From the NCBI GenBank assembly GCA_964187785.1, contig OZ076409.1, positions 73,968,001 through 74,032,000 of the forward strand: a stretch of DNA of 64,000 bases. The letters are read 5' to 3'. The stretch is from Amphiscolops sp. MND2022. Taxonomy: Eukaryota. Below are positions 1,510-63,693 of this stretch, one piece after another; position 1 is the stretch's first letter; every line of letters starts with the position of its first letter. The notes beneath the pieces are model-generated. The model did not search any database. It was not told the DNA's origin and saw only the letters and a list, made by a program, of their open reading frames with translations. Both the position numbers and the translations under genes were made by a program.

Positions 1510-2787
1510 GTGGTCGTTAGCATGGGATTTTCTTTATGAGCGTAGTCCACTTTTTTTAGGCCGGGGTAGGGTCCCGGGCCGTTACCAATTTCTTACGGAG
1601 GAAAAATGTGAAAATCTGCGAGTTTAAAAAATTGGCCCGTACGATTTGGCTGAAAATTGGCACACAGCATCGTCTTGGTAAACAAATGACTTTGTCCTAG
1701 TGACATTTTGCCCAGAAAATTCAAAAAGTTGGTCAAATTGAAAATTTTTTGACCGTCTAAGGCTAAAATTTGACTTTTTCGCTTTTTTTGGTCAATTTCC
1801 TCAGAACTGGTTGATTTTGGTGAAGTAAGTCATAAGAGGTTATAAGGTCTGCAAAAAGCCATCAATTGGCTTGCATAATCAGATTTTGTCAAAAGTGTTT
1901 AGTTTTTTCAAAATTCCACACTTTTTTTTCATGTCAGTGTTTTTTGATACAATTTATTGAATTTTTACTAAGTTCCACTAAATATTTTTAAAATGTTTTT
2001 AAAAAACCTTTTTTTGCACGTTTTTGATGTTTTTTGCTCTCCCATATAGGTTTTCGCATACGGGGAACCTGAATCTGACAACGAAATAATTTTATTCCGC
2101 AGTTCAACTTACGCCATTTTTAATAGTGAAAAATCACTCATTTTCAATCTAACGAGTGAAAATATCAGAATTTAAAAACCTAAAGTTGAGTTTAAGGCGA
2201 CTTACAGGTAGAAACAAATGCTCAGAAACAAACTGATTTCTTGTATTAGCTAAAGAAAGCCTTTAAAATTCTTTTTACTTTCTTTAAATCAAAATTCGAC
2301 ACTTTTCATGAAATTTGTCAGTGGAAAAAATTTATCATTTTTTAAATTAAAAACTTGCTTTGTTGGTCATTTCCGTTAGTCATTAGTAGCTGTGTAATGC
2401 TCCAAAGCCTTTCAAGTTCTTTTGACCCTATTTGAAAATTTTTGATACTGCATAATCAATCCGAGAGAACGAAACAGTTGTGTACATTCCATCTCCCTCT
2501 TGGGGGAGATGAGAATGTACTTCCTAAAGTCCAGGTACTACAGATCATATTTGGTTTTATGCGACGCCCTCTATGCTAGTGCATATAAATACAAGTTGTT
2601 TGGCTGGATTTTGCTTCTGACTTGACGTATACTGTACGTTTGGTACTGACAATACCCATCATTTACATAACAAACGTCAACGCCACATACCCTTACCAAC
2701 GCCCATAGTCCGTAGGCATGCCGAGGCATGCCTTTCGACGACGCGCGCCAAACACAAGCGCGCCCGCACTTTTGCGGTAGCAGCTAG
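1510..2787 (+). mobile_element. Unit 1, 1278 bp, ~1.3-kb class, distinct family
   Basis: Starts GTGGTC. Left hairpin 1559-1580, H1 hairpin 2482-2520, core 2714-2733, CTAG 2784-2787. Body is seen only once in the window. Confidence 0.7.
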
Positions 2788-5022
2788 GTGGGCGGGGGTA
2801 ATTCCCCAACAAAAAAATCGGCCGGCGGGTCGGGTCCTGCCGGCCGTCCAAAATCAAAATTATACTAGTAGAAAACGGCCGGTCAAACGAGCTATTTTTT
2901 TATTTAACCGTTAGAATTTGGGTTTAGATTGCATGCGGCCATGAAATGGCCATACGAATCGAAGTTCCTGCTGACGTTTTGCGATTGAAACACTTTATAA
3001 AAAGTTATGGCCAATTTGTCAGTCACCTAGAAGGGCAAAATGAGGAAAATTTTAACAAAGTCGCTGATAACTCAAAATGTGTTATTTTTTGGACTTTGAC
3101 TGTGAAACAAGCTTGGAACCTTCATTTCGTGGCTGTGGCATTGCACTGAACGCAAAAGATGTAAAGTTTTTACATTTTTTGAAAATTTGACATTTTTGAA
3201 ATTTTTTTCACTACTATCAGTACCATATATGTCAAAAACACCTCAGAAAAAAAATTTTATTTGCTTTAACTTGGAAACCTTGGTATCCATGGTTTCTGTC
3301 GGAACCTACTCGCAACCAAACAACCAACAGTTTGCATCCAATGTGAAAATAAAAAATTTTTCTGGGTCATAAGCGTTTCACAAGGATTTCTCAACTTAGT
3401 ATTGATTTACAAAATGGTCATTTTGAACACAATATTTTCATCGAGGCTTGTCGGCTATAGCCTTAATGTTCTAGAACGGTCCCACTGGCAACGTAGGAAC
3501 CATTTATAGTAATAGAAAGTTTAAAAAATATATTATCACCCTGTCTTCAGTCATTTTTCTGTCATTCGGAACTTAACTTAGAAAAATTTCGACCAAAATA
3601 CCCATTTTTTGACAGATCGAAAATTCAAATTCAACTTTTTAAGCAAAATTATTAACTCTGACGTAACCAGTGGGGCTCATGATACTCAAAAACACGATTG
3701 GGACTGGTACCAATGGCTCCAATATCATATGAGCCGCGATAAGACGTTATTTTGAGCAATACGTCTCAATTGAGGGAAACATCTCGCAAGCCTGGGATCA
3801 CAGTTAAAAGTGATTTCGTCAAAAATTTACTCTTTTTCGTCAATCACTATGTACACAGAGTGCGTAGGGTGAGTTTCAGCACTATAATGCGGTTTTTGAA
3901 GGAATCGGTCTGCTCAAGGGGTGGTATGAGACATTTTTTTTGCATGTAGTACTATATTTCTCAAAACTTTTAGCCCATTATCTCGAAAAGCTCACTTCGC
4001 AAATTACTTTCAGTTACTCTATTCGAAGCTTAGAATATATATGAACACTGTGGTTGATCAGAAACTCTTGACTATTTTGTTTTTGGAAAAAAACTGCCTT
4101 GCATGTGTTACATTAGTGGCAGGAAAAATACCAGTAGCTCCAAAAATCACAATTTTGGACGGACAGACCTGCAATGATGCAAAGCAAAAACGTTTCAACA
4201 ACTTCTGGCGCCACTTTTTTTACCCAAGAGGTTCGAAATTACTATTAACAATGCTGACATTCGCTATAAATAAGATCGAGGTCAATTTATTAACACTTAG
4301 GTTATACATTTATATCTGAGAAACCATTCTTTGTCAGGTCGCAATTTTAAATTTAGTTTGGGAAGCAATACTTTTCACTCTGAAGCAAACCGTTGGGCCC
4401 AAATTACTCAAAAACTACAAAAAGACTGTCACCATATGCCCTAATAGCATATGAGATTCGACCGTTCGTTTTTAACACAAAAACTCTCATCCGAAGTAAA
4501 CATGTTGAAAGCCTTGAATCACCGTGAGAAATGATTTCATCAAAAAATATTCCTTTTTCGTCAATCTTTATCTACACAGAACACGTTGTGTCATTTTCAG
4601 CCGTGAAATGAGCTTCTACCGTAATATGGGTTGCTCAAGGTGTTGTATAAGTCAAAAACTTCCTCTTTTCTACTATCTTCTTCAAATATTTCAACCCTTT
4701 GTCACAAGAAGTTAATATTCAAAATCTCTTTGAAATGTTTCTTTAGGTTGGGGTGAAGTGTTAGAACAATAATTATGATCGAAGAATGATAGTATTGGTG
4801 TTTGGACCATGTCCGGATGAACAAATTGCAAAATCATGAAAAATTTCTTACCATTTTTGGTCATTTTGTCAGTACTAAAAATGTTAGCTGAAAAAGAATT
4901 TTTTTGATGGCACCATTGGATTCCTCTCAAAAAGTTAGCTATATGAACTGTGTAATAACCCCGTATCTTTTCAATTTAAATAATTTTAAAAAGCAAACTT
5001 TTTTGACTAAAATCCTAAAAAT

Positions 5023-6370
5023 CATACCATTTCCTAAAAAATTTCAAATGCCCCCCATTTGACGTATAAGAATAGCACAGAAAACTATCACATACCGATC
5101 GACTCTACTTCCATTGTAAATTACCAGAATTTTGTTTAGAACAATTTTTGACGGATGCAAAAAAAATTTAAACCCTCCAAAAAAGGGCCAAAATTACACG
5201 AAAAAATTGACCTTAAAATTTTAAAATGTCGAAAAATCATCAAAACCACAGCTTCTTGGGGTTCTATCAACTCCACGTGGTCCACAGAGTATGTTAAAAC
5301 AAGTTTTACCCGTATTTGAGCAATATGTGAAAAAGCCGACTTTTTTGGGAATGAAAAACATACCATTTCCTAAAAAATTTCAAACGCACCCCATTTGACG
5401 TATAAGAATAGCACAGAAAACTATCACATACCGATCGACTCTACTTCCATTGTAGGTTACCAGAATCTTGTTTAGAACAATTGTTGACGGATGCAAAAAA
5501 AAATTAAACCCTCCAAAAATGGGCCAAAATTACACGAAAAAATTGACCTTAAATTTTTAAAATGTCAAAAAATCATCAAAACCACAGCTTCTTGGGGTTC
5601 TATCAACTCCACGTGGTCCACAGAGTATGCTAAAACAGGTTTTACCTGTTTCTGAGCTATATGTGAAAAAACCGACATTTTGGGGAAGAAAAACATACCA
5701 TTTCCTAAAAAATTTCAAATGCACGCCATTTGCCGTATGAGAATAGCACAGAAAACTATCACATACCGATCAACTCTACTTCTATTGTAGATTATCAGAT
5801 TCTTGTTTAGAACAAATTTTTATGGATATAAAAAATTTTTAAACCCTCCAAAAATGAGCCAAAATAACACGAAAAAATGGACCCTAAATTTTTAAAATGT
5901 CAAAAAATTATCCAAACCACAGCTTCTTGGGGTTCTATCAGCTCCACGTGGTCCACAGAGTATGCTAAAACAGGTTTTGCCCGTTTTTGAGCAGTATATG
6001 AAAAAGCCGACATTTTTGGGGAAGAAAAACATACCATTTCCTAAATAATTTCAAATGCAGGCAATTTGCCGTATGAGAGTAGCACAGAAAACTATCACAC
6101 ACCGATCAACTCTACTTCTTTTGTAGATTATCAGAATTATGTTTAGAGTAAAGTTTTATGGATATGAAAAATTTTTATACCCTCCAAAAATGGGCCAAAA
6201 TGACACGAAAAAATTGACCTCAAATTTTTAAAATGTCAAAAAATTATCCAAACCACAGCGTCTTGGCGTTCTATCAACTCCAAATGACCTTCAGAGTATA
6301 CCAAACCAGGTATTGCCAATCTTTTGAGCAATATTTAAAAACACCGACAATTTGGCAAGAACACCATAAT
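5023..6370. repeat. Internal tandem repeat, ~4 x 336 bp (unit 2)
   Basis: CATACCATTTCCTAAA recurs at 5023, 5359, 5694 and 6030. End position approximate. Confidence 0.9.
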
Positions 6371-7436
6371 ATGTTCCATATAAGAAGTGAATCATTCCAC
6401 ATATATACCCGGTCTAATATTTCCAAATTAGCGATAACATTTATACATGATGGTTTTTGAAAGTGAGCTTCATAAGAGGTTGAGATGTAATAATACGTAA
6501 ATGGACCCTAAGTTTCATTGAAATCTCAATTGAATACGTCCAATCAACTTCAATCCTAACTATTATATATCAAAAAACACTTGAGTACATTCCATCTCCC
6601 CATCGGGGGAGATGAGAATGTACTTTTCAAAAGCCAAAAACTTCGAATTTTAAATCTTTTGTAACATTGTATGTAACTGTTGAAACGATGAACGAATAAA
6701 AATGCTTCTAGTACCTTCATCAATTTTTGCTTCAGCTCCTATTTCTGCAGAACAAAACCAAAAGACACACTTACAGCAGTTAAGTTCGATTGTATAACTC
6801 AGTGAATAAAGGTATGACTGAGGAAGTTCACAAGTTGTTTCAAAAGTTTCCGGCCTTCCAAAATCATGAAACGTCCACACAACCAAGATAGCAAGTGAAA
6901 GAATGCTGAATGCACCTTATTAGATGAGATAAATAATGTGTGGAACTTGCCATTATCTCAAGATGACGTTGATTTATGATCTTTTCAGGATAGTTCGATA
7001 TGTGACCACAATAGTGGAAAACTTATTACTATTTGAAGAACACCGTGGAAAGCGTTCAGAAAGGACAGTATATTTGTTTCGAGCATGCATGCGTGTGTTC
7101 CTTTGGTGACGTTAGCTTAGTGTACATGACGGAGGTATTCGAGAGATTATGATAGAGTTTACTCACAAGTCTTTGTTTTTTTAAACTTTCTATGCCGTTG
7201 AGTACATTCGTAAGGTACATCCATCCCCTTCTCTGGGAATGTACGTTTGCCAAATGACTGTCATCCAAAATTCGTAATCCGGACGAGTTTAACTACATAA
7301 ACATGTGATGAGCGTTTTCAATTCACAACCGAATAACATTTTTTTCTCGAAAATGATGATGGTTTTGATTTTGATGTCTTCTACTTTTATCATCATGCAA
7401 ACGACCTTACCATGTCTCTCTTCTGTCGTCATTTGT

Positions 7437-7549
7437 ACAACGCCACATAGCGTTCCGACGCCCACCGTCTGTGGGCATGCCGAGGCATGCCCTTCGACGA
7501 CGTATGCCAAATGAGCCATACCCGCACTCTGGAGTGCGGTAGCAGCTAG
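7437..7549 (+). other. Representative conserved right-end module (present in all 23 unit ends)
   Basis: CAACGCC...CGACGCCCAC-GTCYGT-RGGCATGCCGAGGCATGCCY-TTCGACGACG-variable spacer-GC hairpin-CTRR. About 48-59 nt separate the palindrome from the end. Confidence 0.9.
7473..7492. promoter_or_regulatory. Invariant 20-bp palindrome, probable protein-binding site; 19/20 match to the p53-family response element (representative of 23 copies)
   Basis: GGGCATGCCG|AGGCATGCCC compared with RRRCWWGYYY x2 with zero spacer. Function not demonstrated. Confidence 0.5.
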
Positions 7550-9531
7550 GTGGGCGGGGGTAATTCCCCTTCAAAAAATTCGGCCGGCGGGTTGGGTCCT
7601 GCCGGACGTCAAATAGTGTGAAACATCCAGTAGGAAACGGCGACATTTATCAGCGATTTTAAAATTTAACCGTTAGAATTCGGACTTGGAGTGCATGCGG
7701 CCCCAAAATGCCCATACGAATGGAAGTTCCTGCTGACGTTAAGCGATAAAAACACTTTATAAAAAGTTATGGCCCATTTTACGTTCACTTAGAGAGGTAA
7801 AATGAGGAAAATTTTAACAAAGTTGCTGATAACTCAAAATACTTTAATTTTTGGACTTTGACTGTGAAACAAGCTTGGAACCTTCATTTCGTGGCTGTGG
7901 CATTGCACTGAACACAAAAGATGTAAAGTTTTCACATTTTTTGAAAATTCGACATTTTTGAATTTTTTTCACTACTATCTGTACACTATATGTCAAAAAC
8001 ACCTCTGAAAAAATTTTTTGTTTGCTTAAATTTAGAAACCTCGGTATCCATGGTTTCTGTCGGAACCTACACGCAGCCAAACACTCAACAGTTTGCATCC
8101 AATGTGAAAATAAAATTTTTTTCGGGGTCATAAGCGTTTCACAAGGATTTCTCAACTTAGTATTAATTTACAAAATGGTCATTTTGAACACAATATTTTC
8201 ATCGAGGCTTGTCGGCTATAGCCTTAATGTTCTAGAACGGTCCCACTGGCAACGTAGGAACCATTTATAGTAATAGAAAGTTTTAAAAAAATTTTTTCAT
8301 CCGGTCTTCAGTCATTTTTCAGTCATTCGGAACTTAACTTAGAAAAATTTCGACCAAAATACCCATTTTTTGTCAGGTCGAAAATTCAAATTCAGATTTT
8401 TAAGCGATATTATTAACTCTGACGTAACCCATGGGGCCCATGATACTCAAAACAACGATTGACACTGGTATCAATGGCTCCAATAACATATGAGTCGCGA
8501 TAAGACGTTATTTTGAGCAATACGTCTCAATTGAGGTAAAGATCTCGCAAGCCAGCGATCACTGTGAAATGTGATTTCATCATAAATTTACTCATTTTTG
8601 TCAATCACTATGTGCACAGAATGCGTAGGGTGCGTTTCAGCACTATAATGAGGTATTTGAAAGCATCGAGTTGCTCAAGGGGTGGTATGAGACATTTTTG
8701 TCCCATATACTTCTGTATTTTCCAAAATTTTTAGCCCAATATCTGGAAATACAAACATGACAAATAACTTTCAACTACTTTATTCAAAGGTTACAATATA
8801 GATGAACACTGTGGTTGGTCAGAAACTTTCATCTCTTTCGTTTTCCGAAATATTTCCCTTCGCATGTGTTACATTTGTAGCAGAAAAAAAATCGATACTG
8901 AAAAATACGCTATTTTGCTAATATAGAATCGCAATGATTGTGCCTAAAAACTCTTTAAACACTTCTAGCGCGACCTTACGCACCCAAAATTATCGAAAAT
9001 GCTATTCACAATGGTGACATGTGCTCTTTCAACGATCCTGACTGAACAATTTTCGCAAATTATTCAAGTACCTGTTAACTGAATCTCGTGATAGCCTTTT
9101 AAGTTGGCCTTGTGTCAACTTGGGAAGGCTATCACATCAAAAAATTTCCAACAATAATACTTTTTGTTTATTGGAAATGACAGTCGATATATAATTTCGT
9201 GATTCTATACTACCGTTAGTACCTTCCATTAAGTCACGTGACGATTGCATTCAGTCTTTGATAAATACCTATGAACTCGAAGTCATATTTATAAATTTTT
9301 CGCTAAAAATAATTATCAAAATTATCCAAATTATTTAAAATTGAGTCTTTATCGTTTTTGTTTTTCTTTTTCTACTGTTATTAGGCCCATCAACTTCCTA
9401 CAGCCACGCTCTCTGTCATTAGTACAACGCCACATAGTGTTGCGACGTTCACAGTCTGTGGGCATGCCGAGGCATGCCCTTCGACGACGTATGCCGAATA
9501 CCGCGGGCCTACGCCCGCGCTCCCCGGCTAG
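7550..9531 (+). mobile_element. Unit 3, 1982 bp, ~2-kb class
   Basis: Shares its first ~1.27 kb with the 4.76-kb class. H2 at 9088-9135, core 9460-9479, hairpin CGCGGGC-ctac-GCCCGCG, CTAG 9528-9531. Confidence 0.75.
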
Positions 9532-47220: not shown

Positions 47221-50200
47221 GTGGTCAGTGCTGTTGCGTTCATTTTTTTCCGGCCGTGGGGGAGGGCCCCTCTGAGGCCGGTCATTTTTCAGGTAACAGC
47301 TTTCTTATACAAAAAAGCGGGAAAAAACCTCAGTGCTCAAATCCCAACCGTCAGAATGAGCTGAAATTTGGCATGTAGCTAGTGCATTGCAAATGATTAG
47401 GATGGGTTATAACGCTATGTTTGGCAAAATTGGTTTTGTTGCATTTTTTTTGTCATATAGGGCCAAAAATGGCCTTTTTTGCGTATTTTTTGCTTGACTA
47501 GCTAATAACTCGCGTTGGGTTGGTACTAGCGATACGGGTGTGGGGTATGGAATTGTAAGAATACCAAGTACCTTGCTGATCACGTTATTTGATTTCCGCC
47601 CACATCACCCCCCACGCCGGAAATGCCCAATTTGTCACTTCCGGTCGCAATTTTTGACTTTTTTGGATGGAGTCAAAACCCATTTCCGGTGTGAAGGAGT
47701 GGGTTGAGCGCTTCGACCCCAATATACTAAAAGTAGGTTTAGACAAAGTCCTATTAGGAAAAAAGTAATGTAAGCCCGTACCTATCACCCCCTCACCGGA
47801 AATAGGGGTCACGCCTCCTTTTTCTGTGTTGCAAAAGTGACATGTGCACATTTGTCCAACTCCGAAGCCCCGGAGCACTGTGGGACCCTTATACTTTCTA
47901 AACACCTATCCCACACGCTACCGGAAGTGACCGGAAGTTTCACCGGAAATGACATCCTCGGACCGGAAATGGTCAAAAAATGACTTTTTTAATGCAAAAT
48001 AGACACAATTGGTGCGATTTTTAGGCAAAAAGCATAATTCGTGATACGCTTGTTGCAGTTGAAAGGGCCATTGTTCAGCAAGAATGCATACAGCATTACG
48101 TAGCACATCAAGTGGTTGATAATTTTTCGTCCATAATATCCATAGGACCGGAAATGGCCATTTTTGAATCGGAAATTTCTTCAGCTTGACTTTTAACAAG
48201 TTTTTCCACAATATTAGTGTAGGAATTGCTCGTCGGATGCTTTAGGTCTATTTTAAAACTAGCTGACTGCTTCTTAGAAATGTATTTCAGAAATCCCAAC
48301 CAATTCCAGATTACCGGAAATGGGAGTAATTGCCTCCTTTATGACCTTTGAATGATAAATTGTTAAAATCCGCAAATTATTTTATTCCACAACTGTTGCT
48401 CAGGTTATATCTAAGCAATAACATCTGCTTGTTTTGAAGTGCTGTATTGTGGGAGATACAAATATTGCTTTTTAATAGTAATACATACGTGATATTCGCC
48501 GCAATAAAGATTTTTCAAATCAACCATTTTGAAGTCCTACTGGTGTTCCGCACACCCGAAATAATTTAAGTTTCTAGTTTCGATTTTCAGGCTTCCGCGA
48601 CTATTGAGTTGAGATGATAGTTTTCACGTTCTCTGCAAAACGGGCATTTCATTGTGTATGTGACATTTATTGGGTTGTTTCACATGGTAATTCAAAACTA
48701 ATTGATCATACAATTTAGAACAATTGAAAATTTTCAATTGAACAATAAATGTTTTAATAATTTCTCTTTCGTTAAAGATACTCTTTTGTGGCCATTAGAA
48801 CAGGTTGAATTGGTTGAATAAGTAACCAGTGCGTTACATCGTTTATTACATAGCGTTTGACATCGTTTTCTTGCGAACAAAGACAAGCATGATTTGTTGG
48901 AAGTTTTTACCATATCGCTTCAAATCGATCGTGACAAACAATGAATTTCTCGTTTTAATTGCTACTTCGAAAGCAGCCTGAAAACGCAAATCGATCTATT
49001 GAGTTATGGAGATGCAACTAAGCATTTCAAGTCTGGGTTTCAATTTAATTCTATCACTCCGGACTATTTTTATGTCGCAAAAGTGATAAAGGGTGTTAGC
49101 AAGGTTAAAAACATCGAACAATTTTAAAAATAATGCCTCCGGAAAGGGAAGAAAAATGAGTTTTCCTGTCCAAACAATGATAACCACGTACGAAACATCA
49201 AGTATTTGTATTGTTCAATAGTCCAAAACATGAATGAAGTTTTTAAATATCCAAGAGTTTCTAATCAAGCATGCGTTTCAAATGTCTCACAGGGCAGCAT
49301 CGTTTTCAAAAAACAGTGCTTTCAATGTGGTTTCATACCAGCAAAACGAACGCAGGCACAACCACATTCTCAAAATTCTTGCACAACAACCAATTTCTTT
49401 GAAAATCCTATTTGATTCCTCAAGGTATATGGTGAGAACCCTGTTGGGTTCCAAAGTTGATGTGCTGTTTTCTTGGGTTTGCGAGATAAGTTACAACGGA
49501 AATCTGAAAGCAGGTCGTCTCAATAAAATACCTGTTGCTCTTTAAACGATTGGACTTAAGTAGTCGAAATTTCTTCTCAGACACTTTCGATCAGAGAATG
49601 TTTGAGTCCTAACGTTCGAATCAGGTTGGTTTCAGGTGGCTCGAAGTGCCAGCTGAACCAACCTTTCAAATAAAGAAAAACCCCACACCTCCCTTCATGC
49701 CACGCTACCCCGTATAGCGTTTCAACTTGACAGAAAGTGGAACGTTTGATTTTGGCGTCGCTTGGGATTGACACACCAGTGTTGATACTATATTTGGCAA
49801 AGAGAAATCGCAGAAATGATTGTTTCTGTTTTTTCCTTTGATTTAGTGTGTCGAGCGTACAAAGCAGTTTGGGAAACTAACTTGCATTTCCACTGAACGA
49901 AAAGCAAAAGTAGTAACATTGAAAACTTCCGGAATAAATTTAATCAGGTTTCCGTATTTGTGAGATCAGCTGCCACTCAGTTATCAGTTACATCTTTCAA
50001 ATTTTTAAGAACAACTAATCAAACTTTGCTCGACTCTCTTGGATAAGGCAACAATAGTTTACTAATCTGTACTCGTGGAAAAAAGTCAACTGCCGGGTCA
50101 AAAACAATCTGTATGTAACTTTTCTCTCGTGCAAAGTTATTTTTTACCCCCTCTGACTCAACTATAGCATGTACGTAATGAAACCAATAACACCTTCAAC

Positions 50201-50292
50201 TGTTAATCAACGCCCACCGTCCGTAGGCATGCCGAGGCATGCCTTTCGACGACGCGCGCCAAAAACAATATAACGGCGCCACCTGCTTCTGG
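47221..50292 (+). mobile_element. Unit 16, 3072 bp, ~3.07-kb class, distinct family
   Basis: Starts GTGGTCAGTG. CCGGAA(G/A)T clusters, H3 hairpin 49623-49664, core 50225-50244, ends CTGG 50289-50292. Confidence 0.7.
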
Positions 50293-53200
50293 GTGGTCAG
50301 TGCTGTTGCGTTCATTTTTTTCCGGCCGTGGGGGAGGGCCCCTCTGAGGCCGGTCATTTTTCAGGTAACAGCTTTCTTATACAAAAAAGCGGGAAAAAAC
50401 CTCAGTGCTCAAATCCCAACCGTCAGAATGAGCTGAAATTTGGCATGTAGCTAGTGCATTGCAAATGATTAGGATGGGTTATAACGCTATGTTTGGCAAA
50501 ATTGGTTTTGTTGCATTTTTTTGTCATATAGGGCCAAAAATGGCCTTTTTTGCGTATTTTTTGCTTGACAAGCTAATAGCTCGCGTTGGGTTGGTACTAG
50601 CGATACGGGTGTGGGGTATGGAATTGAAAGATTACCAAGTACCTTGCTGATGATGTTATTTGATTTCCGCTCACATCACCCCCCACGCCGGAAATGCCCA
50701 ATTTGTCACTTCCGGTCGCTATTTTTGACTTTTTTGGATGGAGTTAAAACCCATTTCCGGTGTGAAGGAGTAGGTTGAGCGCTCCAACCACGATTTACTA
50801 AAAGTAGGTTTAGACAAAGTCCTTTCAAGAAAAAAGTAATATGAGCCCGTACCTATCACCCGCTCACCGGAAATAGGGGTCACGCCTCCTTTTTCTGTGT
50901 TGCAAAAGTGACATGTGCACATTTGTCCAACTCCGAAGCCCCGGAGCACCGTGGGACCCTTATACTTTCTAAACACCTATCCCACACGCTACCGGAAGTG
51001 ACCGGAAGTTTCACCGGAAATGACATCCTTGGACCGGAAATGGTCAAAAAATGACTTTTCAATGCAAAATAGACACATTTGGTGCGATTTTTAGGCAAAA
51101 AGCATAGTTCGTGAAACGCTTGTTGCAGTTGGAAGGGCCATTGTTCAGCAAGAATGCGTACAGCATTACGTAGCACATCAAGTAGTTGATACTTTTTCGT
51201 CCATAATATCCTTAGGACCGGAAATGGCCATTTTTGAATCGGAAACTTCTTCAGCTTGATTTTTAACAGGTTTTTCCGCAATATTAGCGTAGGAATTGCT
51301 CGTCGGATGCTGTAGGTCTATTTTAAAACTAGCTAACTGCTTCTTAGAAATGTATTTCAGAAGTCCCAACCAATTCCAGAATACCGGAAATAAGAGTAAT
51401 TGCCTCCTTTATGACCTTTGAATAATAAATTGTTAAAATCCGCATATTATTTTTTTCCACACTTGTTGCTGAGATTATATCTAAGCAATAACATGTGCTT
51501 GTCATGAAGTGCTGTAATGTGGGAGTTACGAATATTGCTATTTAAGAGTATTACATACGTGAATATCCGCCGTAATAAAGATTTTTTAAAACAACCACTT
51601 TTGAAGTCCTATAGATTGTCCGCACACCCGAAACAATTCAAGTTTCTAGTTTCGATTTTAAGGCTTCCGCGACTATTTAGTTGAGATGATAGTTTTCACG
51701 TTCTCTGCAAAACGTGCATTTCATTGTGTTTTTGACATTTATTGGGCTGTTTCACATTGTAATTCAAAACTAATTGATCATACAATTTGGAACAATTGAA
51801 AATTTTCAATTGAACATTAAATGTTTTAATAGTTTCTCTTTCGTTGAAGATACTATTTTGTGGCCATTAGAACAGGTTGAATTAGTTGAATAAGTAGCCA
51901 GTGCGATACATCGTTTAATACATAGCGTTTGACATCGGTTTTTTTGCGAACAAAGACAAGCATGATTTGTTGAAAGTTTTTACCATATCGCTTCAAATCG
52001 GGTGTGACAAACAAGGAATTTCTCGTTTTATGTGCTACTCCGAAAGCAACCTGAAAACGCAAATCGATCTATTGAATTATCGAGATGAAACTAAGCATTT
52101 CAAGTCTGGATTTCAATTTAATTCTATCACTCCGGTCTATTTTTATGTCGCAAGAGTGATAAAGCGTGTTAGCAAGGTTAAACACATCGAACAATTTTAA
52201 TAATAAAGCCTCCGGAAAGGGAAGAAAAAATGAGTTTTCCTGTCAAAACTATGATAACCACGTACGAAACATCAAGTTTTTGTATTGTTCAATAGTCCAA
52301 AACGTGAATGAAGTTTTTAAATATCCAAGCGTTTCTAATCAAGCATGCGTTTCAAATGTCTGACAGGGCAGCATCGTTCTCAAAAAACATTGCTTTCAAT
52401 GTGGTTTGATACCAGCAAAACGAACGTAGGCACAACCAGATTCTCAAATTTCTTGCAAAACAGCCGATTTCTTTGAAAATCCTAATTGATTTCACAGGGT
52501 ATATGGTGAAACCCTGTTGGATTCCAAAAATGAAAAGCTGATTTCTTGGGTTTGCGAGATAAAAGACAACGGGAATCTGAAAGCAAGTCATCTCAATAAA
52601 ATACCTGTTGCTCTTTAAACAAATGGACTTTAGTAGTCGAAATTTTTTCTCAGATACTTTCGATCAGAGAATGTTTGAGTCCTAACGTTCGAATCAGGTT
52701 GGTTTCAGGTGGCTCGAAGTGCCAGCTGAACCAACCTTTCAAATAAAGAAAAACCCCACATCTCCCTTCATGCCACGCTACCCCGTATAGCGTTTCAACT
52801 TGACAGAAGTTGGAACGTTTGATTTTGGCGTCGCTTGGGATTGACACACCAGTGTTGATACTAAATTTGGCAAAGAGAAATCGCAGAAATGATTGTTTCT
52901 TTTTTTCCCTTTGATTTAGTCTGTCGAGCGTACAAAGCAGTTTGGGAAACTAACTTGCATTTCCACTGAACGAAAAAAAGTAGTAGCCTTGCAAACTCCT
53001 GGAAAAAATTGAATCAGGTTTTCCTATTTGTGAGATCAGCTGTCACTCAATTATCAATTACTTTTTTAAAAATTTTTAGGAACAACTAACCTAACTCTGC
53101 TCGACTCTCTTGAATAATGCAACAATCGTTTACTGATCTGTACTCGTGAGAAAAAAATCAACTGCAGGTCCAAAAACAATCTATATATCTTTGGTTTATT

Positions 53201-53362
53201 CCGTGCAAAGCTTTTTTTCACACCATGTGACTCAACTATTACATGTATGTAATGAAACCAATAACACCTTCAACTATCAACGCCCACCGTCCGTAGGCAT
53301 GCCGAGGCATGCCTTTCGACGACGCGCGCCGGAAACAATCTAACGGCGCCACCCGCTTCTGG
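50293..53362 (+). mobile_element. Unit 17, 3070 bp, ~3.07-kb class
   Basis: Paralog of unit 16. H3 at 52696-52737, core 53295-53314, CTGG 53359-53362. Confidence 0.7.
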
Positions 53363-56300
53363 GTGGTCAGTGCTGTTGCGTTCATTTTTTTCCGGCCGTG
53401 GGGGAGGGCCCCTCTGAGGCCGGTCATTTTTCAGGTAACAGCTTTCTTATACAAAAAAGCGGGAAAAAACCTCAGTGCTCAAATCCCAACCGTCAGAATG
53501 AGCTGAAATTTGGCATGTAGCTAGTGCATTGCAAATGATTAGGATGGGTTATAACGCTATGTTTGGCAAAATTGGTTTTGTTGCATTTTTTTTGTCATAT
53601 AGGGCCAAAAATGGCCTTTTTTGCGTATTTTTTGCTTGACTAGCTAATAACTCGCGTTGGGTTGGTACTAGCGATACGGGTGTGGGGTATGGAATTGTAA
53701 GAATACCAAGTACCTTGCTGATCACGTTATTTGATTTCCGCTCACATCACCCCCCACGCCGGAAATGCCCAATTTGTCACTTCCGGTCGCAATTTTTGAC
53801 TTTTTTGGATGGAGTTAAAACCCATTTCCGGTGTGAAGGAGTGGGTTGAGCGCTTCGACCCCAATATACTAAAAGTAGGTTTAGACAAAGTCCTATTAGG
53901 AAAAAAGTAATGTAAGCCCGTACCTATCACCCCCTCACCGGAAATAGGGCTCACGCCTCCTTTTTCTGTGTTGCAAAAGTGACATGTGCACATTTGTCCA
54001 ACTCCGAAGCCCCGGAGCACCGTGGGACCCTTATACTTTCTAAACACCTATCCCACACGCTACCGGAAGTGACCGGAAGTTTCACCGGAAATGACATCCT
54101 TGGACCGGAAATGGTCAAAAAATGACTTTTCAATGCAAAATAGACACATTTGGTGCGGTTTTTAGGCAAAAAGCATAGTTCGTGAAACACTTGTTGCAGT
54201 TGGAAGGGCCATTGTTCAGCAAGAATGCATACAGCATTACGTAGCACATCAAGTGGTTGATAATTTTTCGTCCATAATATCCATAGGACCGGAAATGGCC
54301 ATTTTTGAATCGGAAACTTCTTCAGCTTGATTTTTAACAAGTTTTTCCACAATATTAGTGTAGGAATTGCTCGTCGGATGCTTTAGGTCTATTTTAAAAC
54401 TAGCTAACTGCTTCTTAGAAATGTATTGCAGAAGTCCCAATCATATCTAGATGACCGGAAATGGGAGTGATTGCCTCCTTTATAACCTTTGAATGATAAA
54501 CTGTTAAAATCCGCAAATTATTTTATTCCACAATTGTTGCTCAGGTTATATCTAAGCAATAACATCTGCTTGAGATGGAGTGCTGTAATGGGAGATACAA
54601 GTTTTGCTTTTTAATAGTATTACATACGTGATATCCGCCGCAATAAAGATTTTTCAAGTCAACCATTTTGAAGTCCTACTGGTATTCCGCACACCCGAAG
54701 CAATTTAAAACTTTAGTTTCGATTTTCAGCTTCCGCGACTATTTAGTTGAGATGATAGTTTTCACGTTCTTTGCAAAACGTGCATTTTATTGTGTATTTG
54801 ACATTTATTGGGCTGTTTCACATGGTAATTCAAAACTAATTGATCATACAATTTGGAACAATTGAAAATTTGAACAATTTTTTAATAATTTCCCTTTCGT
54901 TGAAGATACTATTTTGTGGCCATTAGAACAGGTTGAATTAATTGAATAAGTAGTCAGTGCGATACATCGTTTAATACATAGCGTTTGACATCGGTTTTTT
55001 TTGCGAACAAAGACAAGCATGATTTGTTGGAAGTTTTTACCATATCGCTTCAAATGGGGTGTGACAAACAATGAATTTCTCGTTTTAATTGCTACTTCGA
55101 AAGCAACCTGAAAACTCAAATCGATCTATTGAATTATCGAGATGAAACTAAGCATTTCAAGTCTGGATTTCAATTTAATTCTATCACTCCGGTCTATTTT
55201 TATGTCGCAAGAGTGATAAAGCGTGTTAGCAAGGTTAAACACATCGAACAATTTTAATAATAAAGCCTCCGGAAAGGGAAGAAAAAATGAGTTTTCCTGT
55301 CAAAACTATGATAACCATGTACGAAACATCAAGTTTTTGTATTGTTCAATAGTCCAAAACGTGAATGAAGTTTTTAAATATCCAAGCGTTTCTAATCAAG
55401 CATGCGTTTCAAATGTCTGACAGGGCAGCATCGTTCTCAAAAAACATTGCTTTCAATGTGGTTTGATACCAGCAAAACGAACGTAGGCACAACCAGATTC
55501 TCAAAATTCTTGCACAACAACCAATTTCTTTGGAAATTCTATTTGATTCCTCAGGGTATAAGGTGAGAACCCTGGTGGGTTCCAAATTTGATTAGCAGTT
55601 TTTTGGGTTCGCGAGATAAGTTACAACGGAAATCTGAAAGCAGGTCGTCTCAATAAAATACCTGTTGCTCTTTAAACGATTGGACTTAAGTAGTCGAAAT
55701 TTATTCTCAGACACTTTCGATCAGAGAATGTTTGAGTCCTAACGTTCGAATCAGGTTGGTTTCAGGTGGCTCGAAGTGCCAGCTGAACCAACCTTTCAAA
55801 TAAAGAAAAACCCCACATCTCCCTTCATGCCACGCTACCCCGTATAGCGTTTCAACTTGACAGAAGTTGGAACGTTTGATTTTGGCGTCGCTTGGGATTG
55901 ACACACCAGTGTTGATACTAAATTTGGCAAAGAGAAATCGCAGAAATGATTGTTTCTTTTTTTCCCTTTGATTTAGTCTGTCGAGCGTACAAAGCAGTTT
56001 GGGAAACTAACTTGCATTTCCACTGAACGAAAAAAAGTAGTAGCCTTGCAAACTCCTGGACGAAATTGAATCAGGTTTTCCTATTTGTGAGATCAGCTGT
56101 CACTCAATTATCAATTACTTTTTCAAAAATTTTTAGGAACAACTAACCTAACTCTGCTCGACTCTCTTGAATAATGCAACAATCGTTTACTGATCTGTAC
56201 TCGTGAGAAAAAAATCAACTGCAGGTCCAAAAACAATCTATATATCTTTGGTTTATTCCGTGCAAAGCTTTTTTTCACACCATGTGACTCAACTATAACA

Positions 56301-56419
56301 TGTATGTAATGAAACCAATAACACCTTCAACTATCAACGCCCACCGTCCGTAGGCATGCCGAGGCATGCCTTTCGACGACGCGCGCCGAAAACAATCTAA
56401 CGGCGCCACCCGCTTCTGG
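53363..56419 (+). mobile_element. Unit 18, 3057 bp, ~3.07-kb class
   Basis: Appears to be a mosaic of unit 16-like and unit 17-like variants. H3 at 55753-55794, core 56352-56371, CTGG 56416-56419. Confidence 0.7.
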
Positions 56420-57722
56420 GTGGCCACGACCATGGTTTCTTGCGTATCTTGTCGAATCTTTTGTCGTTGCCGGCCGGGGAGGGACCCGTTTGCCGGCGTG
56501 TGTAGTGTGGGGCCCCCATACCCAAAAAGTGGTATTTTTTTCAGAGATCTCAAAATCGGCCCGTCAGAATTGCCTGAAATTTGGCATGAGGCTCCCAATT
56601 GGGGAAAAAATAAGAAGTGTAGGAGGCGACTTGTTCGGGTAAATATTGTATGTTGACTTTTGGCCAAAATAGTGTTCCCCCCCAACATGGGCAAAATCAC
56701 ATGAGGTGTAAAAATATGATCACAACTTTTGAACCTTTGGATTTAGGGGTACGGTCGTGGACCACATTAAGCAAGAGCTTTGGTGAGCGGGTAGGATAGA
56801 TGAGTTTTGATCCCAGTACCTTCAACCACTTTTGAGAAATTAACGTTTCAAACAAACATCCGGGAGGTATCTGTTGCCCCTGAAGGCAGGTTTTTCGCCA
56901 TTTTCAATGTGAAGGAGTGGGTTTAGCGCAACGTGTGTGGGGTGCTTTTTTGTTGCCCGTGTGCGGAGCGTTGTATAGAGGTGCTGGTTGTTGAAATTGG
57001 AAAAGTTGGTAAAAAGTTATACCTATACCCCCCCTACTGTCTCTGCCATTCAATTTTTTTTTCAACTTCAGGCCTCCCAAAGGTGAGAAACTTCCACACA
57101 ACTAGTATTGCAAGTGAATGCATGTGGAAAGTACTTGGATAGACGAGAAAAATGAGCTATAGAACGACTCTGTAGCTTAACTTGACGTTGACTTATGACA
57201 TTTTGAGTGTGAGCTTGCTATGTGAGAAAAAAATTCAAAATTGAAAATCGAAGTAAGTCTCATCCAAAACTCATCGAAATACGTTCAATCCATCCCAAAG
57301 CGGATTAATTCCAGATATATAGTGCAGCAACACTATTCAAGACCATTTGACACAATTTTACTAGTTTTGACATTGTATTATTCATCCGAGAGCACAAAAC
57401 AGTTGGGTACATTCCATCTCCCTTTCGGGGGAGATGAGAATGTACCCGCTAAATGACACGCACCATGGTCTAAATTTTACCTTTATGCGACACTTTCTAG
57501 GCTTTCGCGCAAGCCCACTAATATTTAGACTGGTTTCTTTCTCTTTCACTCCAAACATTCCGTCCGTACTAACCACCTTACACACCACCAGCAGCTCAAC
57601 GACACATCTGTAACGTCAACGCCACATACTTGCATCAACGCCCACCGTCCGTGGGCATGCCGAGGCATGCCCTTCGACGACGTATGCCCGTTGTCACAAC
57701 AGGGCGCCCCTACATTCTCTAG
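56420..57722 (+). mobile_element. Unit 19, 1303 bp, ~1.3-kb class, distinct family
   Basis: Starts GTGGCC. Left hairpin 56469-56497, H1 at 57405-57447, core 57653-57672, CTAG 57719-57722. Confidence 0.7.
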
Positions 57723-59716
57723 GTGGGCGGTAGGTTTCCCGTAGTCAAAAAAAAATTGCAGGCCGGGGTAGGGGCCCTGGCCGAGGCAAAATACCATAGA
57801 AAAGGTACCAAATTATGTGAGTTTAGAAAATTGAGCCATACAAATTCTCTGAAAATTGCTGTGTGTACCCTATCGCCCAATCTAAGAACTTTTTCCTGCT
57901 GACGTTTTGCTCTCCAAATGTTACTAATATGACTTTTTGAAAAATTTATCTCTGGTTTTTCATCAAAAATAGTGATTTTGGCAATTTTTGTGAAATATCT
58001 CTGATTGCATTAATTTTTGGACGTTGACTGTGAAACAAGGTCGGAACCATCATTTCGTGACCATGGCAATGCACTAAACACAAAAGATGTAGAGTTTTTA
58101 AATTTTTGGAAAATTTGACATTTTTAAATTTTTTTCACTACTATCAGTACCATATATGTCAAAATAACCTCAGAAAAATTTTTTTATTTTATTTAATTTA
58201 GAATCCTTGCTATCCATGGTTTCTGTTAGTATCTACTCGCTGCCAGAGACTCAACAGTTAGCATCGAATCTGAAATTAAAAATTTTTTCGAGGTCATAGG
58301 TGTTTCACAAGGATTTCACAACATAGTCTTGTTTTACAAATAGGTCATTTACAACATCATATTTTCATCGAGGCATGTCGGATATAGTCTTATTGCTCAC
58401 GAACGGTCCTACTGGCAACGTAATAACCATTTATAGAAATATAAAGTTTTTAAAAAATCTTTTTACCCGTTCTTCAGACATTTTTCAGACATTCGGAACT
58501 TAACTTAGAAAAATTTCGTCTCAAAAACCCATTTTTCGTCAGGTCGAAATTTGAAATTCAGCTTTTGAAGCACAAATATGCACTCTGACGTAACCAGTAG
58601 GGCCAATGATACTCAACAACACCATTGAGACTGGTATCAGTCGCTCCAAAAACATATGAGCCGTGATAAGACGTTTTTTTCAACAATACTGTTCAATTGA
58701 TGTAAACATCGCGGAAGCCTTGGATTACAGTGAAAGTTGATTTGAACAAAAATTTACTCTTTTTTGTCAATCACTATGTAGACAGAATGCGTAGGGTAAG
58801 TTTCAGCACTAATATGAAGATTTTGAAGGAATCGGGTTGCTCAAGGCGTGGTATGAGACACTTTTTTCTCATATACTAGTGTTTTTCAAAACCTTTTCGT
58901 TAAATATCTCGAAAAGCAAACAATAAAAAATACTTTCTGATATCTAATTTAATTCCTAGAATATAAATGAATCATGTGGTTGATCAGAAACTCTCTACTT
59001 TAATGTTTCCAGAAAAAAATCCCTTCCCATGTTTTATATCTGTAGCAGTAAAAAAAGTAGACGCTAAAAAATACGCTATTTTGCTAAGATTGAATTGCAA
59101 TTGTTTAGCTTTAAAACTCTTTTAATACTTCTAACGCCACCTTAAGGACTCAAGATGATTGAAAATGTCAATCACAATGCTGACATGTAGTCTTTCTACG
59201 ATCCTGGCTGGACAGATTTTGATTATTTTTCAAGTACCTGTTAACTGAATCTCGTGATAGCCTTCTAAGTTGACCTTCTGCGTCAACTTGAGAAGGCTAT
59301 CACTAAAATAAACTAAATTCTGATTTGTTTGTTTGTTCCTAACGTCTTTTGGTACGATCGTCTTACGGTTAGTTGGTTAAACCAGGTCGCTTATACTTCC
59401 ACAATTTTCGACCACCGTCCGTGTATTCGGTTCACACGACTTTACATTTTCAGTCGTTTGTTTTCGATAACTATCACAATGTACTGCCATTAGCGCAAAA
59501 TTCATACTAGTACTTGGTTGGTTGAAATACTCAAACAACTGTTTCCATAGTTATTCGCGGTGATGGTACAATCCGCGCGCCTACATACCTACGGCGTCTT
59601 GTCACTACAACGCCACATAAGGAAACAACGCCCATAGTCCGTAGGCATGCCGAGGCATGCCTTTCGACGACGCGCGCCAAATCTATGCGCGCCCGCACTT
59701 GTGCGGTAGCTGCTAG
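57723..59716 (+). mobile_element. Unit 20, 1994 bp, diverged ~2-kb class member with distinct ends
   Basis: Middle is homologous to unit 3 but diverged. H2 variant 59254-59303, core 59643-59662, terminal hairpin CCGCAC-ttt-GTGCGG, CTAG 59713-59716. Confidence 0.7.
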
Positions 59717-61704: not shown

Positions 61705-63693
61705 GTGGGCGGGGGTAATTCCCCAACAAAAATTACGGCCGGCGGGTCGGGTCCTGCCGGACGTTCAAATAGCGCGAAGCATCTAGTAGAAAACAAGGAG
61801 TCCTGAAACAGCGATTTTAAAATTGAACCGTTAGAATTTGGTTTTAGATTGCATGCGGCCCTAAAATCCCCATACGAATGGAAGTTCCTGCTGGCGTTAA
61901 GCGATTGAAATAATATATAAAAAGTTATGGCCCATTTTTGGGTCACCGAGAAGGTCAAAATGAAGAAAATTTTAACTAAGTTGCTGATAACTCAAAATGT
62001 GTTAATTTTTGGACTTTGACTGTGAAACAAGCTTGGAACCTTCATTTCGTGGCTGTGGCATTGCACTGAACACAAAAGATGTAAAGTTTTCACATTTTTT
62101 GAAAATTCGACATTTTTGAATTTTTTTTCACTACTATCAGTACACTATATGTCAAAAACACCTCTGAAATTTTTTTTTTATTTGCTTAAATTTAGAAACC
62201 TCGGTATCCATGGTTTCCGTCAGTACCTACTCGCTGCCAAACACTCAACAGTTTGCATCCAATGTGAAAATAAAATTTTTTTCGAGGTCTTAGGTGTTTC
62301 ACAAGGATTTCTCAACTTAGTATCAATTTACAAATTGGTCATTTTGAACACATTATTTTCATCGAAGCGTGTCATATACCGCCCTAATGCTCACGAACGG
62401 GCCTACTGGCAACGTTGGAACCATTTATAGTAATAAAAAGTTTTAAAAAATTTTTTTCACCCCGTCTTCAGTCATTTTACACACTTTCGGAACTTAACTT
62501 AGAAAAATTTCAACCAAAAACCCATTTTTTGTCTAGTCGAAAATTCAAATTCAGCTTTTTAGGCAAAATAAGTAAATCTGACATAACCAGTGGGGCCCAT
62601 GAAACTCAAAACCACGATTGAGACTGGTATCAATGGCTCCAATAACATATGAGTCGCGATAAGACGCTATTTTGAGCAAAACATCTCAATTGAGGTAAAG
62701 ATCTCGCAAGCCAGCGATCACTGTGAAATGTGATTTCATCAAACATTTACTCTTTTTTGTCACTCACTATGTGCACAGAATGCGTAGGGTGCGTTTCAGC
62801 ACTATAATGAGGTTTTTGAAGGCATCGAGTTGCTCAAGGGGTGGTATGAGACATTTTTGTCCCTTATACTACTGTAGTTTCCAAAATTTTTACCCCAATA
62901 TCTGGAAATACAAACTTGACAAACAACTTTCAACTACTTTATTCAAAGGTTACAATATAGATGAACACTCTGGTTGATAAGAAACTTTCATCTCTTTCGT
63001 TTTCGGAAATATTTCCGTTCGCATGTGTTACATTCATAGCAGAAAAAAAAATCGAAACTGAAAAATACGCTATTTTGCTGATATAGAATCGCAATGATTG
63101 TGCCTAAAAACTCTTTCAACACTTCTAACGCAACCTTACGCACCCAAAATGATCAAAAATGCTATTCACAATGGTGACATGTGCTCTTTCTACGATCCTG
63201 GCTGGACAAGGTTTGCATATTTTTCAAGTACCTGTCAGCTAAATCTTGTGATAGCCTTTTCAGTTGGCCTTGTGTCAACTTGGGAAGGCTATCACATCAA
63301 AAAACCATCAACAAAAAAAAATTTTGTTTATTGGATCTTACAGTAGATACTTTTTTCGTGATTCTATACTACCGTTAGTATATTTCATCAGGTCACCTTA
63401 CGATTGCATTCAGTCTTTGATAAAAACCTATGAACTCAAAGTCACATTTATATATTTTTTTGCCAGAAAATAACATCAAAAATATCTAAAATTTATAAAA
63501 TAGAGTCTTTAACATTTTTACGTTTCAAGTTTTTGCCGTTATTAGGCCAATCAACGTCCTAGAGCCACATCCTGCCACATACTGTACAACGCCACATAGT
63601 GTTGCGACGTGCACAGTCTGTGGGCATGCCGAGGCATGCCCTTCGACGACGTATGCCGAATACCGCGGGCCTACGCCCGCGCTCCCCGGCTAG
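61705..63693 (+). mobile_element. Unit 22, 1989 bp, ~2-kb class, near-identical tandem copy of unit 21
   Basis: ORF track repeats at offset 1989. Core 63622-63641, CTAG 63690-63693. Confidence 0.75.

Follow-up and report, generated by a model that had tools for sequence, protein, structure and literature searches.

The stretch analysed here, a 64,000-bp window of contig OZ076409.1 from Amphiscolops sp. MND2022 (positions 73,968,001 to 74,032,000), is one head-to-tail array of 22 complete non-coding units that follow one another without spacer (Table 1). Each of the 22 units has its strongest internal hairpin at 0.775-0.801 of the unit length, and three unrelated sequences, denoted H1, H2 and H3, fill this role. 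We consider it very likely that this proportion reflects a real constraint on the elements. The combination of precise joints between mixed units with a scale-invariant hairpin that is re-sited appears to be new and undescribed.

Internal hairpins and the joints between units

The hairpin was defined as the lowest-energy 50-nt window under DNA folding parameters, the first 100 and last 130 bases of each unit being left out. Its folding energy ranges from -12.8 to -19.0 kcal/mol, compared to -7.1 to -10.8 kcal/mol for the next-best window; with RNA parameters and the unit ends included, it is the strongest window overall in all 11 units folded. The distance from the hairpin to the 3' end (d3) follows the unit length (L) as d3=52.5+0.1885L, with r2 of 0.9987 for the 22 units and 0.998 when each of the 7 lineages contributes one point. 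For four lineages, proportional placement has P=1.4e-4 against a uniform position and P=7.7e-4 against a distance independent of length, both values being post hoc. The proportion was noticed in H1 and H2, and H3 was then found where predicted, an order of events that was not recorded before the test.

H1 is present in units 1 and 19 and in family B, H2 in family A and units 7 and 20, and H3 in family C (the families are described below). All three are about 40 nt long, with stems of 17-22 bp that contain a single-base bulge or small mismatch and close on a short loop. The hairpins are about 90% conserved amid unalignable flanks, with the 1-nt bulge retained, and H2 contains G.T pairs that favour the + strand. 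Family C carries a second, weaker hairpin directly after H3 (about 49696-49745; positions 2476-2525 of unit 16), with a CAACTT/AAGTTG core like that of H2, a resemblance that is not significant (E about 3); neither is a possible remnant of an H2 arm in unit 1 (E 0.66). Between the internal hairpins and the unit ends we found only short complementarity at chance level. The turning points of GC and AT skew do not fall at a shared fraction of unit length, and scaled GC profiles differ from one family to another.

Family B sets the position of the hairpin apart from its ancestry. The H1 sequence lies 286-296 bp from the end in the 1.3-kb units and 941-954 bp from the end in the 4.76-kb units, which carry, in addition to the intact H1 at 0.80, a broken copy about 620 bp downstream, at the site that H1 occupies in unit 19. 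The match of the broken copy to H1 has E values of 0.0012 in unit 2, 0.0036 in unit 10 and 0.27 in unit 14. Given that the same H1 stands at either about 290 or about 950 bp and that the broken copy marks the unit 19 site, the proportional position is not a product of descent. Most simply, the hairpin would have been re-sited while the element gained length, this being the presumed direction of the change.

The 23 junctions were located with the aid of an invariant 18-bp palindrome, GGCATGCC-GA-GGCATGCC, of which the window contains 23 copies, each starting 67-78 bp before a junction of the form CT(A/G)G|GTG. The census is CTAG|GTGG in 18 cases, CTGG|GTGG in three and CTAG|GTGC in two, and the joints display 15 distinct combinations of ends and starts. 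Unrelated bodies change over exactly at the RG|GTG core, which comprises 4-5 common bases (family A to C, C to unit 19, A to unit 7, and others), so that the joint between units looks site-specific rather than the outcome of homologous crossover alone. The GGTG shared at each joint could be a single direct repeat per junction, the joints in the window being unit-to-unit joints alone. The GC-rich hairpins of the 3' terminal module vary, several different sequences making the same terminator pattern, and the stems of the 5' hairpin differ among families yet still pair. Furthermore, the terminal sequences do not follow size class: the 3' end of unit 1 is closest to that of unit 20 (88%), and the ends of family B are nearer to those of unit 8 (84-86%) than the latter are to those of unit 3 (74%).

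The outer pair of the palindrome covaries, being G..C in 17 copies and A..T in six (the copy at 1432-1451 and 22 others). At all 23 junctions, the palindrome fits the p53-family response element, two RRRCWWGYYY half-sites with one mismatch; it may represent a germline or stress switch or simply the binding site of the enzyme that moves the units.

Precise joints of this kind could also be made by a tyrosine or serine recombinase, with units moving as circles cut and joined at a GG or GGTG core, like integron cassettes or CTX/RS1 arrays; the hairpin would then serve for loading or synapsis, and where it stands with respect to both junctions would matter. The changeover at a 4-5-base core and the free reassortment of bodies would suit such an enzyme, and insertion of a circle into an existing copy has been proposed for KolobokP multimers (PMC9587614; here and below, the cited papers are represented by excerpts). 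However, the core is not flanked by inverted binding arms, the best matches between 5' ends and reverse-complemented 3' ends being exact over 7-9 bases or short and gapped. The 3' hairpin plus CTRG fits the terminator of Helitrons, and a synapsis site, if symmetric, should lie at 0.5 rather than 0.79 of the length. A recombinase thus appears unlikely.

Still less probable is an RNA intermediate, with full-length RNAs joined by a template-jumping reverse transcriptase and the hairpin serving as an RNA signal or as an internal plus-strand priming site comparable to the central polypurine tract. G.T pairs on the + strand of H2 and the 5' hairpins, a UUCG-type loop in unit 19 and the mixed head-to-tail arrays known for telomeric retroelements (PMC11934779) are in line with this scenario. 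By contrast, neither a poly(A) tail nor 5' truncation is seen at any of the 23 junctions, including those after 4.76-kb units, H3 has no purine tract, and no Rfam match at E<=1 was obtained in 45000-60000 (15 kb of the 64 kb).

Table 1. Units, hairpins and repeats of the array, with positions counted from the first base of the window.
Feature	Position	Strand	Remarks
Example 3' terminal module	1397..1509	+	~110 bp; CAACGCC repeats, palindrome, 1-2 GC-rich hairpins, then CTRG
Array of 22 complete units	1510..63693	+	partial units extend past both window ends
Unit 1	1510..2787	+	1278 bp
H1 of unit 1	2482..2520	+	at 0.776; 286 bp from 3' end
Unit 2, family B	2788..7549	+	4762 bp; 5' ~1473 bp common with family A, ~330-bp internal duplication, four 336-bp repeats
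Example 5' hairpin	2819..2846	+	30-50 bp past junction; loop region GGGT(A/C/T)GGGTCC or purine-rich variant
Four 336-bp tandem repeats, unit 2	5018..6355	+	3.8-4.0 copies in all 6 family B units
Intact H1 of unit 2	6585..6623	+	at 0.801; 946 bp from 3' end
Broken H1 remnant of unit 2	7211..7248	+	with one shortened arm; lies at 0.93, colinear with the H1 that is intact in unit 19
Unit 3, family A	7550..9531	+	1982 bp
H2 of unit 3	9090..9133	+	at 0.788; 420 bp from 3' end
Unit 7	21040..23013	+	1974 bp; body not alignable to family A and in part (520-760) related to family C; H2 and ends common with family A
H2 of unit 7	22551..22594	+	at 0.777; 441 bp from 3' end
Unit 14, diverged colinear member of family B	40471..45232	+	86% to unit 2
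336-bp repeats, unit 14	42701-43967
H1 of unit 14	44259-44297	+
Units 16-18, family C	47221..56419	+	3072, 3070 and 3057 bp
H3 of unit 16	49623..49664	+	at 0.789; 649 bp from 3' end; identical across units 16-18
Unit 19	56420..57722	+	1303 bp; 5' part like family C; 3' 665 bp colinear with 3' 715 bp of family B
H1 of unit 19	57407..57445	+	at 0.772; 296 bp from 3' end
Unit 20, diverged colinear relative of family A	57723..59716	+	1994 bp
H2 of unit 20	59256-59301	+	at 0.780

Unit lengths, kinship and the content of the bodies

The initial annotation of this DNA had divided the array into units of four discrete length classes separated by steps of about 1.54-1.55x, and junction-to-junction measurement reproduced its lengths exactly. 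The classes comprise units of 1278 (unit 1) and 1303 bp (unit 19), 11 units of 1974-1994 bp, three of 3057-3072 bp and six of 4750-4765 bp, with units 2, 4, 5 and 14 measuring exactly 4762 bp each. The class means (1290, 1985, 3066 and 4760 bp) yield successive ratios of 1.539, 1.545 and 1.553, as the annotation had it; this near-geometric ladder has a nominal P of 3e-4 to 2e-3, calculated post hoc. Ratios of capsid T numbers were considered as a source of the factor and rejected: (4/3)^1.5=1.54 suits one step, and there is no plausible series for 1-5 kb.

The annotation had further held that the classes unite dissimilar sequences. Judging from the alignments, the size clustering is mostly kinship: 19 of the 22 units, including 14 and 20, are colinear homologues that fall into three families and show ordinary indels and recombination in register, whereas unit 7 versus unit 8 and unit 1 versus unit 19 are not. 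Family A (units 3, 6, 8, 9, 12, 13, 15, 21 and 22; 83.5-99.6% identity), family B (units 2, 4, 5, 10, 11 and 14; 84-99.5%) and family C (units 16-18; 93-96%) are each colinear over the full length. Unit 20 is colinear with family A at 79-82% identity over about 290-1590, the offset staying within about 10 bp (mostly 7-9 bp), and unit 14 differs from unit 2 by 40 indels with a net change of 0. The 22 units represent only 6-7 lineages, so that the evidence weighs less than would 22 independent draws.

Within families, the ratio of indels to substitutions is mostly 0.03-0.10, and no gap exceeds 13 bp in alignments with up to 28% divergence. Net length change is consistent with indels of random sign in 24 of 25 pairs. 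Compensating indels, a possible sign of selection on length raised by the annotation, did not emerge, with a single pair at P<0.05 (unit 2/unit 14, P=0.028, uncorrected); the rows for units 1/19 and 3/7 in this test are forced global alignments that carry little meaning. Families A and B swap segments in register throughout, and mosaicism is extensive, so exchange alone would keep their lengths aligned. For instance, unit 8 (23014-25003) is 97-98% similar to unit 13 over its first 400 bp, 97-99% similar to the family B units 10 and 11 from 400 to 1000, and thereafter 94% similar to unit 6, and unit 10 bears a unit 8-type 3' end. Homologous segments are equal in length between classes; the classes therefore differ by block changes and not by even stretching. 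Within families, the alignments show lengths held together by common descent and in-register recombination.

Kinship does not account for two size matches between families. Units 7 and 8 (the latter of family A) have the 5' hairpin, internal hairpin and 3' end in common but not the middle of ~1.3 kb. Likewise, ~150 bp of 5' sequence and ~450 bp of 3' sequence are common to units 1 and 19, the offset being 14 before and 15 after an unalignable middle of ~680 bp. For both pairs, the alignment scores of the middles do not exceed those of shuffled or reversed controls. With six log-uniform lengths, the chance of two disjoint matches is 0.025 (both within 2%) or 0.013 (one within 0.6%), and that of at least one pair within 2% is 32%. 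As a sign of constraint, these two matches are suggestive only. The 336-bp repeats of family B group within units rather than by position (copies 0+1 and 2+3 in unit 2, copies 1+2 in unit 14; support 98-100), that is, they were homogenized separately in the two units and still number about four. Gene conversion would equally produce a constant repeat number with separate homogenization.

It could be argued from these data that there is no constraint at all: descent and in-register recombination would keep the families uniform, and chance would account for the cross-family matches and for the proportional hairpin. The 19 colinear units, the random-sign behaviour of indels, their ordinary rate, the extensive mosaicism and the 32% chance of at least one match all agree with this interpretation. 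Against it stand the proportional hairpin (P 1e-4 to 8e-4), the intact H1 at the scaled position beside a broken H1 at the old one in family B, the two cross-family matches (P 0.013-0.025) and the lack of any gap above 13 bp at up to 28% divergence. Pure coincidence is, in our estimation, quite improbable. Some constraint on unit geometry is supported, most strongly by the scaling of the hairpin position with length.

The bodies show no coding signal. Open reading frames (ORFs) of at least 55 aa (1510-9531 and 47221-57722) or at least 100 aa (whole window) made up 140 rows, of which 36 were scanned against Pfam; none reached the cut-off (best E 0.038), and neither a capsid or Rep gene, such as the packaging model of the annotation might call for, nor a RepHel-type partner was detected among them. 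Period-3 bias of substitutions reaches a lowest p of 0.05 in 61 windows. A stretch of family C (48900-49550, + strand) resembles scrambled protein-coding sequence, without Pfam match or codon bias in substitutions. A/T tracts are phased at ~10.2 bp in the bodies, the pooled value (units 1, 19, 7, 3, 16 and parts of 2) being reached by none of 300 tract-preserving shuffles; phasing is strongest in units 1, 7 and 16 and absent in unit 19. A-T swaps are the most frequent substitution (148 of 507). The shared body is unevenly conserved (window variance 12.0 versus 4.7; 0 of 5000 permutations), to which mosaicism may contribute. The view of the annotation that the body is stuffer DNA thus agrees with the lack of coding signal but not with the conserved hairpin, the phased A/T tracts and the unevenly conserved blocks.

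One cause that the annotation had suggested for the lengths is packaging of satellite-like monomers in particles of fixed capacity, in which case the hairpin would be the packaging signal and the body the stuffer. In the 2-kb class, total length is indeed tighter than either of its parts, the middles of units 1 and 19 are equally long, and the 336-bp repeats keep their number despite separate homogenization. Bulged hairpins are common as packaging signals, and the other models leave the geometric ladder unexplained. However, one set of ends would require four particle sizes, the proportional hairpin is not predicted, no capsid or Rep ORF was found among the 36 scanned, and the end motifs have no match in the viral contigs scanned. 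Moreover, the lengths (1 : 1.54 : 2.38 : 3.69) do not fall at the simple fractions of a helper genome expected of a packaged DNA satellite. We therefore view packaging as improbable.

The other cause offered by the annotation, a chromatin period, found no backing, and lengths that are whole multiples of a nucleosome repeat are the least probable of the explanations considered, to the point that we give them little weight. The ~10.2-bp phasing, a weak autocorrelation bump at 160-180 bp and the family B repeat of 336 bp (2x168) point in this direction. Yet among repeats of 155 to 215 bp, the best (182 bp) leaves an error of 0.15 of the period (P=0.42), and the profiles of unalignable middles are not in register beyond controls. 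The claim that length is under selection is thus partly supported, as a constraint on geometry indicated by the two cross-family matches, gaps of at most 13 bp, the roughly four repeats kept and the scaling hairpin, and finds no support as to packaging and chromatin.

A rolling-circle reading compared with known elements

The reading that we favour, tentatively and with less than even confidence in the whole, is that the units are gene-less rolling-circle (Helitron-like) elements in which a hairpin about 19% of the length before the 3' end times the priming of the second strand, length being tied to this hairpin and not to a particle. That a rolling-circle enzyme moves the units is, on its own, slightly favoured, and we count in its support the hairpin plus CTRG 3' end, without spacer, at all 23 junctions. 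Given such an enzyme and a real constraint, a priming role of the hairpin has a somewhat better than even chance.

According to this model, an HUH-type enzyme would nick at the RG|GTG junction, and the + strand would be peeled off 5' to 3' and circularized at the next junction; the circle would then insert at an existing junction, regenerating the site and building up a mixed stacked array. The hairpin would turn single-stranded once about 80% of the strand is out and prime the back-copy. If back-copying ran about 4.3 times faster than displacement (0.81/0.19), both would finish together, and a fixed fraction would be favoured: with a hairpin placed too early, the polymerase would be at the 5' end before the circle closes, and with one placed too late, single-stranded DNA would linger. 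Bodies with a common hairpin-to-end module (about 290, 430, 650 or 950 bp) would be driven towards one total length irrespective of their sequence, which would match unit 7 with family A and unit 1 with unit 19 to within a few percent. Second-strand priming from a strand-specific hairpin, once this is exposed, is familiar from the mitochondrial light-strand origin (OL), and the single-strand origin (sso) of rolling-circle plasmids works in the same way (PMC5703833). For Helraiser, precise end-to-start circles derived from the + strand have been reported, and lagging-strand synthesis on the displaced strand has been proposed (PMC5876387).

Several observations weigh against this model. Eukaryotic primase normally needs no special hairpin. 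The HUH step presupposes an enzyme that was not found among the 36 ORFs scanned, all 23 starts are GTG instead of TC, and an A|T target is lacking. H1 folds nearly as well on either strand. Four independent size points, all from one window, underlie the scaling, and its P values are post hoc. Furthermore, in the 2-kb class, d3 spans 420-441 (a 5% range) while L spans 1974-1994 (a 1% range), and d3 residuals of about 13 bp would permit about 70 bp in L; given this looseness, the ratio rule does not explain how tight the class is. The 1.54x ladder is without explanation in the model. Finally, in bacterial rolling-circle plasmids, the position of the sso is described as flexible, and the excerpts describe no fixed-fraction placement of the kind seen here (PMC5703833).

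On comparison of anatomy, the units seem to work most like non-autonomous Helitrons. The Helitron terminator is a GC hairpin followed by CTRR (PMC11417382, PMC5148889), and the ends here are CTAG in 20 and CTGG in three of 23 cases, with terminal hairpins that fold in 10 end types and are weak in unit 7. The 5' TC of canonical Helitrons (HLE1) is lacking, as is insertion between A and T without duplication, all unit-to-unit joints being G|G and the array edges lying outside the window. HLE1 and Helraiser elements resemble the units in having no terminal inverted repeats, head-to-tail junctions and tandem arrays, and variable non-coding bodies (PMC11417382, PMC5876387, PMC5148889); they differ in that, here, 6-7 lineages are mixed and the joints are exact, and the excerpts describe no proportional internal hairpin for Helitrons. 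Hairpins at both ends are shared with HLE2 (Helitron2/Helentron), unlike its asymmetric terminal inverted repeats of 11-18 nt (the best exact match in nine units is 7-8 bases) and its T|T or T|C target. Replitrons (PMC10288648) are HUH elements with short direct terminal repeats, of which Replitron-1 inserts after RG, and all joints here follow RG. They are known, however, from algae, plants and stramenopiles, and Replitron-1 has fuzzy ends and variable target duplications, as opposed to the exact joints of this array.

Plant centromeres reportedly also carry Helitron-derived arrays, going by the title of a 2016 study by Xiong. Long tandem arrays ascribed to rolling-circle copying are formed by Helitron-derived sequences in Xenopus (PMC12001565) and in Hydractinia subtelomeres (PMC11934779), with internal minisatellites of 166 and 372 bp, respectively, compared to 336 bp here. 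The Xenopus arrays contain 2-7 repeats, whereas this one has full-length units of several families, and the Hydractinia copies display a broad length distribution and many indels instead of tight size groups. A length continuum has been reported for non-autonomous long terminal repeat elements of beet (PMC13570524). KolobokP multimers form arrays by targeting an existing copy but possess long direct repeats and terminal inverted repeats, neither of which is seen here (PMC9587614). Dada elements insert in tandem at a fixed site, with two families possible, and produce 6-7-bp target duplications in small-RNA genes, again not seen here (PMC3706591). The telomere-targeting Helitrons of Paramecium do not match the anatomy of the units in the excerpts (PMC13085455). 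No mixed, precise array with a length-proportional hairpin was found described in the literature covered, which mostly did not extend to subscription papers and Repbase Reports, so that the family may have been described already. It is conceivable, though doubtful, that the array represents a previously undescribed class of animal mobile DNA, one with self-targeting, integron-like mixed arrays, unrelated hairpins at four-fifths of the length that are re-sited on growth, and a ~1.54-fold ladder set by a replication or packaging machine.

Occurrence elsewhere and implications

A motif scan of metagenomes recovered one locus, a contig of 1172 bp (L001) with one junction. It contains a new unit type in which an intact H1 precedes a CGAG|GTGC junction by about 296 bp, together with a unit 7-like start and the same 5' hairpin as the array; the unit ends in CGAG, unlike the CTRG of the window units. 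Because both the junction type and H1 recur on this contig, the system occurs outside this assembly. No match to the end or hairpin motifs was found in the viral contigs scanned, nor any match in motif scans of prokaryote genomes. Among the sequencing runs listed, three have a small share of motif-bearing reads, and none of these is an RNA run; of their contigs, 45-363 bp among the longer fitting pieces and too short for unit lengths, none was counted as bridging a junction.

In the usual view, non-autonomous DNA elements need only their ends, whereas the units of this array seem to place an internal signal by proportion. Placement by proportion, and not by distance or sequence, over a 3.7-fold size range points to a rate-matching or geometric step. 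Conversion of the peeled-off Helitron strand into double-stranded DNA is only modelled in the Helraiser excerpts (PMC5876387). Should the enzyme be found, precise self-targeting that regenerates its own site would be a candidate for the ordered stacking of DNA.

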